A stretch of 54,077 nucleotides of DNA from Nemertoderma westbladi (lineage: Eukaryota; Animalia; Xenacoelomorpha). Positions 1-14,829 of this stretch are shown here, piece after piece (the first letter of the stretch is position 1; every line of letters starts with the position of its first letter). The notes beneath the pieces were generated by a model. That model had not been told where the DNA came from and did not search any database. It saw only the letters and a program-made list of their open reading frames with translations. The stretch is taken from NCBI GenBank assembly GCA_032718475.1, contig JAUCBJ010000051.1, forward strand, positions 1 to 54,077, read 5' to 3'. Both the position numbers and the translations under genes were made by a program.

Positions 1-2882
1 ATCTTTCTCTACAGACATGCTTCTCTCGTGGACTCACCGGATATCTTTCTCTACAGACATGCTTCTCTCGTGGACTCACCGGATATCTTTCTCTACAGAC
101 ATGCTTCTCTCGTGGACTCACCGGATATCTTTCTCTACAGACATGCTTCTCTCGTGGACTCACCGGATATCTTTCTCTACAGACATGCTTCTCTCGTGGA
201 CTCACCGGATATCTTTCTCTACAGACATGCTTCTCTCGTGGACTCACCGGATATCTTTCTCTACAGACATGCTTCTCTCGTGGACTCACCGGATATCTTT
301 CTCTACAGACATGCCTCTCTCGCGGACTCACCCGATATCTTTCTCTACAGACATGCTTCTCTCATGGACTCACCGGATATCTTTCTCTACAGACATGCTT
401 CTCTCGTGGACTCACCGGATATCTTTCTCTACAGACATGCTTCTCTCGTGGACTCACCGGATATCTTTCTCTACAGACATGCTTCTCTAAAGGACTCACC
501 GGATATCTTTCTCTACAGACATGCTTCTCTCATGGACTCACCGGATATCTTTCTCTACAGACATGCTTCTCTCGTGGACTCACCGGATATCTTTCTCTAC
601 AGACATGCTTCTCTCGTGGACTCACCGGATATCTTTCTCTACAGACATGCTTCTCTAAAGGACTCACCGGATATCTTTCTCTACAGACATGCCTCTCTCG
701 TGGACTCACCGGATATCTTTCTCTACAGACATGCCTCTCTCGCGGACTCACCGGATATCTTTCTTTACAGACATGCCTCTCTCGCGGACTCACCGGATAT
801 CTTTCTCTACAGACATGCTTCTCTCGTGGACTCACCGGATATCTTTCTCTACAGACATGCCTCTCTCGCGGACTCACCGGATATCTTTCTCTACAGACAT
901 GCTTCTCTCGCGGACTCACCGGATATCTTTCTCTACAGACATGTTTCTCTCGTGGACTCACCGGATATCTTTCTCTACAGACATGCTTCTCTCGTGGACT
1001 CACCGGATATCTTTCTCTACAGACATGCCTCTCTCGCGGACTCACCGGATATCTTTCTCTACAGACATGCTTCTCTCGCGGACTCACCGGATATCTTTCT
1101 CTACAGACATGTTTCTCTCGTGGACTCACCGGATATCTTTCTCTACAGACATGCTTCTCTCGTGGACTCACCGGATATCTTTCTCTACAGACATGCTTCT
1201 CTCGTGGACTCACCGGATATCTTTCTCTACAGACATGCTTCTCTCGTGGACTCACCGGATATCTTTCTCTACAGACATGCTTCTCTCGTGGACTCACCGG
1301 ATATCTTTCTCTACAGACATGCCTCTCTCGCGGACTCACCGGATATCTTTCTCTACAGACATGTTTCTCTCGTGGACTCACCGGAATCTTTCTCTACAGA
1401 CATGCTTCTCTCGTGGACTCACCGGATATCTTTCTCTACAGACATGCCACTCTCGCGGACTCACCGGATATCTTTCTCTACAGACATGCTTCTCTAAAGG
1501 ACTCACCGGATATCTTTCTCTACAGACATGCTTCTCTCGTGGACTCACCGGATATCTTTCTCTACAGACATGCCTCTCTCGCGGACTCACCGGATATCTT
1601 TCTCTACAGACATGCTTCTCTCGTGGACTCACCGGATATCTTTCTCTACAGACATGCTTCTCTCGTGGACTCACCGGATATCTTTCTCTACAGACATGTT
1701 TCTCTCGTGGACTCACCGGATATCTTTCTCTTCAGACATGCCTCTCTCGCGGACTCACCGGATATCTTTCTCTACAGACATGCTTCTCTAAAGGACTCAC
1801 CGGATATCTTTCTCTACAGACATGTTTCTCTCGTGGACTCACCGGATATCTTTCTCTACAGACATGCTTCTCTCGTGGACTCACCGGATATCTTTCTCTA
1901 CAGACATGCTTCTCTAAAGGACTCACCGGATATCTTTCTCTACAGACATGCTTCTCTCGTGGACTCACCGGATATCTTTCTCTACAGACATGCCTCTCTC
2001 GCGGACTCACCGGATATCTTTCTCTACAGACATGCTTCTCTCGTGGACTCACCGGATATCTTTCTCTACAGACATGCTTCTCTCGTGGACTCACCGGATA
2101 TCTTTCTCTACAGACATGCTTCTCTCGAGGACTCACCGGATATCTTTCTCTACAGACATGCTTCTCTCGTGGACTCACCGGATATCTTTCTCTACAGACA
2201 TGCTTCTCTCGTGGACTCACCGGATATCTTTCTCTACAGACATGCTTCTCTCGTGGACTCACCGGATATCTTTCTCTACAGACATGCTTCTCTCGTGGAC
2301 TCACCGGATATCTTTCTCTACAGACATGCTTCTCTCGTGGACTCACCGGATATCTTTCTCTACAGACATGCTTCTCTCGCGGACTCACCGGATATCTTTC
2401 TCTACAGACATGCTTCTCTCGTGGACTCACCGGATATCTTTCTCTACAGACATGCTTCTCTCGTGGACTCACCGGATATCTTTCTCTACAGACATGCTTC
2501 TCTCGCGGACTCACCGGATATCTTTCTCTACAGACATGCTTCTCTCGTGGACTCACCGGATTTCCTTCTCTACAGACATGCTTCTCTCGTGGACTCACCC
2601 GATATCTTTCAGACATGCTTCTCTCGTGGACTCACCGGATATCTTTCTCTACAGACATGCTTCTCTCGTGGACTCACCGGATATCTTTCTCTACAGACAT
2701 GCTTCTCTCGTGGACTCACCGGATATCTTTCTCTACAGACATGCTTCTCTCGTGGACTCACCGGATATCTTTCTCTACAGACATGCTTCTCTCGCGGACT
2801 CACCGGATATCTTTCTCTACAGACATGTTTCTCTCGTGGACTCACCGGATATCTTTCTCTACAGACATGCTTCTCGCGTGGA
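1..2882 (-). repeat. 42-bp tandem array (~68 copies in window, runs off the left edge); unit = 3' end of PSMC2 exon 5 + GTGAG donor
   Basis: Minus-strand unit GTGAGTCCACGAGAGAAGCATGTCTGTAGAGAAAGATATCCG versus exon end TCCACGCGAGAAGCATGTCTGTAGAGAAAGATATCCG|GTGAG. Few variants; 1-nt deletion near 1386 and 5-nt deletion near 2610. Confidence 0.98.
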
Positions 2883-3003
2883 TTTTAAATATATTCGTTC
2901 GCCCGTCCAGGTCTGGGAGGTTGAACTCAATCTTCCTGTCTAGACGACCGGGTCTCAACAGTGCAGGATCCAGTGTGTCTGGTCGGTTAGTCGCCATTAG
3001 CAC
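2846..3003 (-). CDS. PSMC2: 26S proteasome regulatory ATPase RPT1, coding exon 5 (gene continues beyond window start)
   Basis: [53 protein letters not shown] (AAA second region of homology); acceptor tttacccag, donor CG|gtgagt; 158 nt, phase 0 to 2. Confidence 0.96.
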
Positions 3004-12200: not shown

Positions 12201-14668
12201 TGTAGGAGTGGCGTCTCTACTACTCTCCTCTCTGGGTGTAGGAGTGGCGTCTCTACTACTCTCCTCTCTGGGTGTAGGAGTGGCGTCTCTACTACTCTCC
12301 TCTCTGGGTGTAGGAGTGGCGTATCTACTACTCACCTCTCTGGGTGTAGGAGTGGCGTCTCTACTACTCTCCTCTCTGGGTGTAGGAGTGTCGTCTCTAC
12401 TACTCTCCTCTCTGGGTGTAGGAGTGGCGTCTCTACTACTCTCCTCTCTGGGTGTAGGAGTGGCGTCTCTACTACTCTCCTCTCTGGGTGTAGGAGTGGC
12501 GTCTCTACTACTCTCCTCTCTGGGTGTAGGAGTGTCGTCTCTACTACTCTCCTCTCTGGGTGTAGGAGTGGCGTCTCTACTACTCTCCTCTCTGGGTGTA
12601 GGAGTGGCGTCTCTACTACTCTCCTCTCTGGGTGTAGGAGTGGCGTCTCTACTACTCTCCTCTCTGGGTGTAGGAGTGGCGTCTCTACTACTCTCCTCTC
12701 TGGGTGTAGGAGTGTCGTCTCTACTACTCTCCTCTCTGGGTGTAGGAGTGGCGTCTCTACTACTCTCCTCTCTGGGTGTAGGAGTGGCGTCTCTACTACT
12801 CTCCTCTCTGGGTGTAGGAGTGGCGTCTCTACTACTCTCCTCTCTGGGTGTAGGAGTGTCGTCTCTACTACTCTCCTCTCTGGGTGTAGGAGTGGCGTCT
12901 CTACTACTCTCCTCTCTGGGTGTAGGAGTGGCGTCTCTACTACTCTCCTCTCTGGGTGTAGGAGTGGTGTCTCTACTACTCACCTCTCTGGGTGTAGGAG
13001 TGGTGTCTCTACTACTCACCTCTCTGGGTGTAGGAGTGGCGTCTCTACTACTCTCCTCTCTGGGTGTAGGAGTGGCGTCTCTACTACTCTCCTCTCTGGG
13101 TGTAGGAGTGGCGTCTCTACTACTCTCCTCTCTGGGTGTAGGAGTGGCGTATCTACTACTCACCTCTCTGGGTGTAGGAGTGGCGTCTCTACTACTCTCC
13201 TCTCTGGGTGTAGGAGTGGCGTCTCTACTACTCACCTCTCTGGGTGTAGGAGTGGTGTCTCTACTACTCTCCTCTCTGGGTGTAGGAGTGGTGTCTCTAC
13301 TACTCACCTCTCTGGGTGTAGGAGTGGTGTCTCTACTACTCACCTCTCTGGGTGTAGGAGTGGTGTCTCTACTACTCACCTCTCTGGGTGTAGGAGTGGT
13401 GTCTCTACTACTCACCTCTCTGGGTGTAGGAGTGGCGTCTCTACTACTCACCTCTCTGGGTGTAGGAGTGGCGTCTCTACTACTCACCTCTCTGGGTGTA
13501 GGAGTGGCGTCTCTACTACTCTCCTCTCTGGGTGTAGGAGTGGCGTCTCTACTACTCTCCTCTCTGGGTGTAGGAGTGGCGTCTCTACTACTCTCCTCTC
13601 TGGGTGTAGGAGTGGCGTATCTACTACTCACCTCTCTGGGTGTAGGAGTGGCGTCTCTACTACTCTCCTCTCTGGGTGTAGGAGTGGCGTCTCTACTACT
13701 CTCCTCTCTGGGTGTAGGAGTGTCGTCTCTACTACTCTCCTCTCTGGGTGTAGGAGTGGCGTCTCTACTACTCTCCTCTCTGGGTGTAGGAGTGGCGTCT
13801 CTACTACTCTCCTCTCTGGGTGTAGGAGTGGCGTCTCTACTACTCTCCTCTCTGGGTGTAGGAGTGGCGTCTCTACTACTCACCTCTCTGGGTGTAGGAG
13901 TGGTGTCTCTACTACTCTCATCTCTGGGTGTAGGAGTGGCGTCTCTACTACTCACCTCTCTGGGTGTAGGAGTGGCGTCTCTACTACTCACCTCTCTGGG
14001 TGTAGGAGTGGCGTCTCTACTACTCTCCTCTCTGGGTGTAGGAGTGGCGTCTCTACTACTCTCCTCTCTGGGTGTAGGAGTGGCGTCTCTACTACTCTCC
14101 TCTCTGGGTGTAGGAGTGGCGTCTCTACTACTCACCTCTCTGGGTGTAGGAGTGGCGTCTCTACTACTCTCCTCTCTGGGTGTAGGAGTGGCGTCTCTAC
14201 TACTCTCCTCTCTGGGTGTAGGAGTGGCGTCTCTACTACTCTCCTCTCTGGGTGTAGGAGTGGTGTCTCTACTACTCTCCTCTCTGGGTGTAGGAGTAGC
14301 GTCTCTACTACTCTCCTCTCTGGGTGTAGGAGTGGCGTCTCTACTACTCTCCTCTCTGGGTGTAGGAGTGGTGTCTCTACTACTCACCTCTCTGGGTGTA
14401 GGAGTGGTGTCTCTACTACTCTCATCTCTGGGTGTAGGAGTGGCGTCTCTACTACTCTCCTCTCTGGGTGTAGGAGTAGCGTCTCTACTACTCTCCTCTC
14501 TGGGTGTAGGAGTGGCGTCTCTACTACTCTCCTCTCTGGGTGTAGGAGTGGTGTCTCTACTACTCACCTCTCTGGGTGTAGGAGTGGCGTCTCTACTACT
14601 CACCTCTCTGGGTGTAGGAGTGGCGTCTCTACTACTCACCTCTCTGGGTGTAGGAGTGGCGTCTCTAC
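9271..14668 (-). repeat. 36-bp tandem array (150 copies including the exonic one); unit = 3' end of PSMC2 exon 2 + GTGAG donor
   Basis: Minus-strand unit G(T/A)GAGTAGTAGAGACGCCACTCCTACACCCAGAGAG. First and last ctcacc at 14635 and 9271 differ by 5364 = 149 x 36. Confidence 0.98.
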
Positions 14669-14829
14669 AACTTCCTTAAGCTTCTCTATCTGTTCTTTAC
14701 ATCCACCAACGTCAGCGTAAGTAACATCCGGCTTCTCTTCCACTTGCATCATCGTAACGGTTGGGTCTATCTTCGGGGGCAGAGGAATGTGTATCTGGTA
14801 TTTGTTTCGATCTACACCGACCCTCATAC
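14640..14829 (-). CDS. PSMC2: RPT1 coding exon 2
   Basis: [64 protein letters not shown]; acceptor cacgcag, donor AG|gtgagt; 190 nt, phase 1 to 2. Confidence 0.97.

Follow-up and report, generated by a model that had tools for sequence, protein, structure and literature searches.

Minisatellites that lie across an exon/intron boundary, with a first unit spanning the authentic junction, are described in several human genes and in lancelets. According to PMC1557585, the human class includes the 37-bp VNTR of F7 IVS7 and repeats in CBS intron 13, IFI6 (6-16) intron 2, lamin B2 and PDGF intron 4, in which a series of identical pseudo-donors lies downstream of the real donor. The F7 unit consists of 4 exon and 33 intron nt and is present in 5-9 copies (10-25 copies in the rest of the class). 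The most upstream donor is used in F7, lamin B2 and PDGF, and nearby pseudo-sites are used too in IFI6 and CBS. In lancelets, such repeats are known as 'mirages' and are reported in Adh3 (units of 10-72 bp, with somatic instability), the globins BflGb6 and BflGb9, troponin C and PGBD5, the last of which contains two arrays (PMC3087553 and PMC3902484).

Here we analyze a 54,077-nt window of the Nemertoderma westbladi genome (contig JAUCBJ010000051.1), in which two introns of PSMC2/Rpt1 (minus strand; domains PRS7_OB and AAA) open with long arrays of the preceding exon end and its 5' splice site. An earlier note made from the sequence alone knew of no described system of this form, which is contradicted by the human genes F7, CBS, IFI6, lamin B2 and PDGF (PMC1557585) and by the lancelet mirages (PMC3087553), including the two in PGBD5 (PMC3902484). 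The PSMC2 arrays most likely belong to this repeat type, of which they would be a large and neutral case.

The five PSMC2 exons in the window (Table 1) give a 366-aa frame without stops, with ~85-91% identity to the best 8 of 120 homologs listed. For exon 1, the best matches over the full query reach 83%, among the matches listed. The junction after exon 2 is crossed without a gap in 111/119 homolog alignments. A PDB search returned 0 matches.

Table 1. PSMC2 exons and associated tandem arrays in the window
Feature	Coordinates	Strand	Description
PSMC2 coding exon 1	15269..15671	-	403 nt from ATG; phase-1 donor; without array
PSMC2 exon 2	14640..14829	-	190 nt; phase-2 donor, in-frame TGA at once
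PSMC2 exon 2, last 31 nt		-	First unit of array A
Array A	9271..14670	-	150 x 36 bp; opens PSMC2 intron 2
PSMC2 intron 2 tail	8941..9270	-	330 nt, unique, own acceptor; edge microhomology to exon
PSMC2 exon 3	8796..8940	-	145 nt; phase-0 donor; without array
PSMC2 exon 4	4934..5137	-	204 nt; phase-0 donor; without array
PSMC2 exon 5	2846..3003	-	158 nt; phase-2 donor, in-frame TGA at once
PSMC2 exon 5, last 37 nt		-	First unit of array B
Array B	1..2882	-	Opens PSMC2 intron 5; far end beyond window

TRF delimits a 36-bp array (A) at 9271-14676 (150.2 copies, 97% matches) and a 42-bp array (B) at 1-2882 (68.8 copies, 96% matches), and together with the exon frame and domains this establishes that the ends of exons 2 and 5 are tandemly repeated, as the earlier note had proposed. 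Both arrays are head-to-tail, with the first unit lying across the authentic junction. The array A unit comprises 31 nt of the exon 2 end followed by GTGAG (GAGAG where the GT is lost), or alternatively 29 + 7 nt, if a change at -30 that is fixed in the copies is counted as intronic. The array B unit comprises 37 nt of the exon 5 end followed by GTGAG, with a copy-specific letter at -31. The units thus agree with the note, which gave 29-37 exonic nt and an end point 5-7 nt inside the intron. Copy numbers are those of the window assembly and derive from contig data only, in which no record spans an array. The count of 150 for array A stands, with the qualification that it takes in the exonic unit and that the donor GT is kept in only 49/150 units and lost in 101/150. 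The minimum of 68 for array B also stands: there are 68 complete units of ~42 bp, all with GT and reading GTGAGT, plus one cut unit. The splice signal is therefore repeated in many, though not all, copies (A 49/150, B 68/68). Mean pairwise difference between units is 3.1% in array A and 3.5% in array B.

The unit lengths of 36 and 42 bp lie within the minisatellite range (10 to ~160 bp) and the units are locus-specific within the window, with no 14-mer of either unit found elsewhere in the 54 kb searched. As regards a dispersed satellite or transposon-borne repeat, the units come from the exons of PSMC2 itself. Within the window, no such repeat is present at the other three PSMC2 donors or at the four acceptors. 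The note's view that the two units are unrelated holds by local alignment score (7 vs a null mean of 6.8), and a common ancestor is rejected; they do share the donor and one 8-mer, as do 1.1% of 3000 random CDS pairs. Array A contains stop-free frames of >1800 codons. Elsewhere in the window there are a 27-bp in-frame repeat in coding DNA (46136-46259) and one more large, clean array, with 85 copies of a 24-bp unit. The latter was considered as a third donor array and rejected, as no exon end is seen at either edge.

Evidence on splicing comes from run X4, which is listed as 'DNA?'. No run is recorded as RNA, and X4 is treated as RNA on two grounds: exons are joined at GT..AG ends in its contigs (depth 3285-4328), and coverage is low or absent in most bins of unique intron sequence. 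X4 contigs join PSMC2 exons 1 to 6 and, in this one sample, the main mRNA uses the authentic, most upstream donor at both arrays. Exon 1 is joined to exon 2 over a 439-nt GT..AG intron, exon 3 is reached directly from 14640 (the exon 2 end), the joint 5137/8796 links exons 3 and 4, and the joint of exons 4 and 5 skips 1930 nt. At 2846 (the exon 5 end) a contig departs into the next exon, and the homologs continue likewise. Exon-specific letters are intact: positions 14640-14827 and 2846-3000 show 0 others. Among the X4 rows shown, splicing from a later donor appears in no contig, although low use of later donors may escape notice because contigs drop rare isoforms. The choice among near-identical donors, which the note had presented as a puzzle, is thus made in favor of the first, as in F7. 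At 10% of the depth of the mRNA, X4 also has a cyclic contig of array B. No array-A contig is found in X4; a value of 80.1 at 14600-14640 was considered as array-A RNA and rejected, since it equals that of the mRNA contig, which overlaps by one base.

The DNA runs represent two samples from two studies (X1/X3 from one sample, X2 from another). Both arrays are present in both samples at many times single-copy depth: array-A words have a summed depth of 1096-1731 in X1, X2 and X3, vs ~9-38 on single-copy flanks, and array-B words are found in X1, X2, X3 and X4. The GT>GA variant of array A is the majority form in X1 and X2. Rough depth ratios across samples correspond to 38-73, 46-58 and 67-122 copies of array A, and to about 10-35 vs about 470-1130 of array B, where summed contig depth is not true copy number and may include library bias. 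These between-sample differences would fit a VNTR, and block duplications inside array A record past turnover.

Compared with known systems, the PSMC2 arrays resemble lancelet mirages in having tandem copies across an exon/intron boundary, a splice signal in many but not all copies and a normal mRNA; the mirages vary in length, as the PSMC2 arrays may (PMC3087553, PMC3902484). Their unit lengths fall within the Adh3 range, and PGBD5 likewise has two arrays in one gene (PMC3902484). They differ in copy number (150 and at least 68, vs 2-7 in lancelet globins and PGBD5), in being on the donor side only with almost wholly exonic units, and in residing in an essential housekeeping gene. As in the human class, the first unit spans the junction and the real donor precedes identical pseudo-donors, with the most upstream donor used as in F7, lamin B2 and PDGF; the additional pseudo-site use of IFI6 and CBS is not seen in the PSMC2 contigs, and the presence of two arrays in one gene is unlike what is described for the F7 class (PMC1557585).

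In the reading we favor, with a probability of roughly 0.72, the arrays are boundary minisatellites that were seeded by microhomology, grew by unequal exchange and persist as neutral DNA, with the first donor in use. It builds on how the units are composed, on splicing from the first donor in X4 contigs and on internal duplications of large blocks. Initiation by microhomology-seeded duplication is likely: the array A breakpoint shows microhomology to the exon (8/14 nt), a level reached by 0.66% of 5334 junction-spanning period/breakpoint pairs and matched within +15 by 6/111 periods, although the matching bases may also be what is left of a partial, decayed last unit. Unequal exchange is the likely mode of growth. 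Array A is organized in higher-order blocks of ~38-40 units, and the same 28-unit string of labels is found again at a distance of 38 units (200 shuffles give at most 10), which indicates growth in kilobase blocks; the GT-loss variant has also been copied in large blocks. Neutral persistence is likely given that splicing in the RNA contigs is from the first donor.

Exon DNA has a GC content of 49%, vs 33-41% in introns, and may seed repeats of this type more frequently. Any copy lying entirely within an essential exon, or ending short of intron position +5, would damage the mRNA and be removed by selection, and survivors would consequently cluster just past the complete U1 site. The arrays occupy the only two phase-2 donors among the five (p=0.1), where a slip to a later copy would meet an immediate TGA, producing a predicted NMD target and lowering the cost further. 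In PMC2809761, phase-2 GTRA donors are described as encoding a stop, with NMD backing up weak splicing in Drosophila. Both cases involve phase-2 GTGAG donors and an immediate stop from the wrong donor; that study concerns new Drosophila introns rather than donor arrays, and we infer its relevance to PSMC2 from 2/5 donors. Several points count against this boundary-minisatellite account, which also does not account for some of the B-containing RNA in X4. Arrays at 2/5 donors and both ends at +5 to +7 are rare under a uniform null, and the phase-2 association is only a coincidence at p=0.1, with all five donors reaching a stop within 12 codons anyway.

The leading alternative, which we consider unlikely, is that a splicing- or transcription-coupled process (e.g. 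a U1-bound R-loop or RNA-templated repair) preferentially duplicates the end of the exon as far as the U1-pairing site, and that the resulting seeds later expand. Its extension, in which such duplication occurs genome-wide in this lineage and products persisting at NMD-visible phase-2 donors reach tens of kilobases, is just as doubtful. The note's observation of two independent events ending at +5 to +7 is indeed improbable under a uniform null, at a crude 0.6% for both ends (and ~8e-4 for two of two gene arrays spanning a donor), figures that apply to a window picked for this feature. A coupled process would explain this as well as the arrays at 2/5 donors, and in PMC3087553 the way mirages arise is described as unclear and possibly general. 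However, published mirages also occur at acceptors (PMC3087553), the F7 geometry is the opposite (4 exon + 33 intron nt; PMC1557585), the flank microhomology at array A is of an ordinary kind, the lower bound of +5 is explained by survival alone, and the 24-bp x 85 array forms a third large clean array with no exon end seen. A literature search at the level of listings plus the papers cited here turned up no study testing genome-wide whether arrays are enriched at splice sites; repeats at exon boundaries are treated in PMC2812944 for human segmental duplications only.

Somewhat less likely still is chance combined with ascertainment, in which the genome is rich in random large minisatellites and the window was picked for two that span donors. 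Four arrays, three of them clean and of kilobase size and one degenerate, lie in the 54-kb window, and with ~250,000 windows scanned, events at 1e-4 per window are expected to turn up. Against this, lancelets with several mirages per gene suggest a real bias (PMC3087553 and PMC3902484), and 3/4 clean arrays with units >=24 bp (A, B and the 27-bp repeat) begin in coding DNA.

That the arrays are selected, with decoy donors leading to NMD or U1 binding that tunes PSMC2 output, is very improbable. GTGAGT is intact in all 68 complete B units, array-B words reach 10% of mRNA depth in X4, and human tandem repeats can modulate splicing (PMC10078293). However, conservation of the donor positions in array B is not significant (P=0.14), rough copy numbers vary up to about 40-fold between samples, and no later-donor contig appears among the X4 rows shown. 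Selection for donor arrays, as the note had suggested, is unsupported because two-thirds of A units (101/150) have lost the GT. Selection weakening competing donors in array A is also rejected: the two copies closest to the real donor retain GT, and there is thus no sign of selection against donors.

Creation of the intron by the array (the Rogers model of proto-splice-site duplication) is rejected for intron 2, the intron tested, where the acceptor used in X4 belongs to the 330-nt unique tail and not to the repeats. An assembly artefact, which the note had named as a possible refutation, is scarcely credible: none of the records crosses a whole array, and judged by depth sample S1 would have fewer A copies than the window, but two samples from two studies (X1/X3 and X2) yield high-depth unit contigs, the same GT>GA variant among them, and the variant pattern is structured.

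PSMC2 thus amounts to a natural experiment, on a large scale, on first-donor choice in an essential gene, its main mRNA using the first of about 50 (A) and about 70 (B) intact, near-identical donors. A practical consequence is that gene prediction can be misled by arrays of this kind, given the length of the stop-free frames in array A. The locus predicts that array ends heap up just past +5, and that arrays prefer phase-2 donors, at which splicing from a wrong copy leads straight to a stop codon. If a splicing-coupled origin were shown genome-wide, RNA processing would be linked to where satellites arise, and the 5' splice site would be a mutational hotspot for the birth of satellites and giant introns.

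PSMC2/Rpt1 lies on the minus strand, with five exons within the window and the remainder of the gene past position 1, outside it. Joined, the five exons give a 366-aa frame without stops, containing PRS7_OB and AAA domains, and all 120 of the homologs listed align to it, the best eight at 85-91% identity. Intron 2 opens with a 36-bp tandem array (array A) and intron 5 with a 42-bp array (array B), which are donor-side "mirage" minisatellites (repeats that straddle the border between exon and intron), a kind already known.

Array A has 150 units as assembled, and its first unit consists of exon 2's final 31 nt followed by GTGAG. 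A single change at -30 is common to 149/149 intronic copies, which allows an alternative reading of the unit as 29 exon plus 7 intron nt. Array B has 68 complete units and one cut unit, and it opens with a unit made of the final 37 nt of exon 5 and GTGAG. The earlier note's description of units made of exon end plus start of intron is thus borne out. Units differ pairwise by a mean of 3.1% in array A and 3.5% in array B. Apart from the donor, a single 8-mer is all that the two units have in common; among 3000 random CDS pairs, 1.1% attain such a match. No repeats are found at the other three donors or the four acceptors of PSMC2 in the window.

Features of the window (TRF, Tandem Repeats Finder call)
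Feature	Positions	Strand	Remarks
42-bp array (B)	1-2882		TRF
PSMC2 exon 5	3003-2846	-	gene model; array B at its end
PSMC2 exon 4	5137-4934	-	gene model
360-codon single frame	6007-7089	-	inside PSMC2 intron 3, same strand; 7TM_GPCR_Srx above cut-off
PSMC2 exon 3	8940-8796	-	gene model
36-bp array (A)	9271-14676		TRF
PSMC2 exon 2	14829-14640	-	gene model; array A at its end
PSMC2 exon 1	15671-15269	-	gene model
Element	16697-22265		414-nt inverted repeats; 5-bp target duplication; terminal 10 letters same as DNA transposon
Degenerate 10-bp satellite	17576-20938		inside the element
DNA transposon, intact-looking	24924-30250		TIRs 391 nt (98%); 5-bp target duplication
Transposon ORF, 863 aa	25477-28068	+	no Pfam match above cut-off, no PDB match
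Transposon ORF, 391 aa	28530-29705	-	weak PHD finger
LINE-type reverse transcriptase frame, fragment	31079-32532	+	frameshift near 31540, by eye
Nested long inverted repeats	36630-41901		56-374 nt, 82-100%
Third clean array	42690-44730		24 bp x 85
1582-codon single frame	45983-50731	-	coiled-coil-like by eye; no Pfam match
27-bp repeat	46136-46259		close to end of the 1582-codon frame

The earlier note knew of no described system of this form, a novelty that the literature does not support. According to Borensztajn et al. 2006 (PMC1557585), the first unit of a minisatellite spans the exon/intron boundary in F7, CBS, IFI6, lamin B2 and PDGF, and where several donors are functional it is the most upstream one that is used. 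The lancelet mirages (PMC3087553) are the same kind of repeat: they occur at either boundary (Adh3 units of 10-72 bp), keep the splice signal in many but not all copies, yield normal mRNA and are called unclear in origin. PGBD5 carries two mirages in one gene (PMC3902484). Our literature searches listed no genome-wide test of array enrichment at splice sites.

The locus is present, as assembled contigs, in four runs from three studies, including three DNA runs: X1 and X3, which share a sample, and X2, from a different one. Words of array A sum to depths of 1242 (X1), 1731 (X3) and 1096 (X2) versus ~9-38 on single-copy flanks, and the GT>GA variant makes up 718/1242 in X1 and 661/1096 in X2. 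The donor arrays are real and an unusually large pair, their copy numbers being as assembled in the window, since no examined contig spans an array. Rough depth ratios (summed contig depth, not true copy number) give 38-122 copies for array A and, for array B, ~10-35 in X1/X3 versus 470-1130 in X2. Relative to flanks, array B depth is ~40-fold higher in X2 than in X1/X3; such differences only hint at length variation between samples. At position 15375 in exon 1 the window has A versus T in 4/4 runs, reflecting either a different haplotype or an error there.

The fourth run, X4, is a single sample recorded as 'DNA?' yet behaving like RNA, and its contigs lose rare forms. One contig (depth 3285) joins exons 1 and 2 across 439 nt, passes from exon 2 (last base 14640) to exon 3 and continues from there into exon 4, and another (depth 4328) joins exons 4 and 5 and exits exon 5 at 2846; the loose end of the latter translates by hand as RYELLGRLCP (RFELLARLCP or RYELLARLCP in 67/86 homologs). 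Exon-specific letters are present in both, and therefore splicing at each array in these contigs is from the first donor. X4 also holds a 72-nt cyclic contig of the array B unit (depth 448, 10% of mRNA) and no array A contig. The cyclic contig would be accounted for by unspliced RNA close to the 3' end, and may also reflect some later-donor use.

In array A, a run of 28 unit variants is found again at a distance of 38 units, whereas 200 shuffles gave at most 10, and label identity at lag 78 is 62.5% versus 26% expected; therefore the array grew by kilobase-sized blocks, which carried the GA variant along. At its breakpoint the flanks match at 8/14 nt, a level that just 0.66% of the 5334 period/breakpoint pairs spanning the junction attain, as do 6/111 periods within +15. 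This fits a first duplication seeded by microhomology, though the match could be a decayed partial unit; array A alone was examined here, the far breakpoint of array B lying beyond the window.

Among the remaining features, the two transposon ORFs are convergent, a layout reminiscent of RAG-like elements, and the element at 16697-22265 is likely a non-autonomous relative. The repeats at 36630-41901 probably represent an element of foldback or MITE-like type that contains insertions. An X4 contig over 5829-6257 (depth 24.5) overlaps the nested 7TM_GPCR_Srx frame. No exon end was seen at either edge of the 24-bp array; a 12-nt inverted match lies by eye near 42110, close to it.

As to why the arrays sit at donors, selection for donor arrays, suggested in the earlier note, is not supported, as GT is kept in only 49/150 array A units (GA in the other 101) and, although GT is kept in all complete array B units, the absence of its 11 variable columns from +1 to +6 is not significant (P=0.14). 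GT is also retained in both array A copies closest to the real donor (the exon's own first 5' splice site), so the losses of GT do not lie at the places where selection against competing donors would operate. Under a crude uniform null, and in a window chosen for this very feature, p is ~8e-4 for both of the gene's two arrays to span a donor, ~7e-5 for two of the window's three arrays to do so, and ~0.6% for both units to end at +5 to +7. A splice-coupled origin, the other suggestion of the earlier note, is possible but improbable.

We favor seeding followed by purging. Exons in this DNA have 49% GC versus 33-41% in the introns, and GC-rich exons may be the seeds of arrays. The window's sole exon-internal repeat is 27 bp, in frame and of merely 4.6 copies. 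Of PSMC2's five donors just two are phase 2, and the arrays are at these two; there G|TGA is an immediate stop, and a slip to a later copy would thus be a predicted NMD target (compare PMC2809761); the coincidence with phase 2 reaches only p=0.1, and the other donors also run into a stop within 12 codons. Purging would remove a large repeat that lies within an essential exon, as well as one ending before +5 and spoiling the first donor, and the surviving arrays would have mostly exonic units that end just beyond a complete U1 site.
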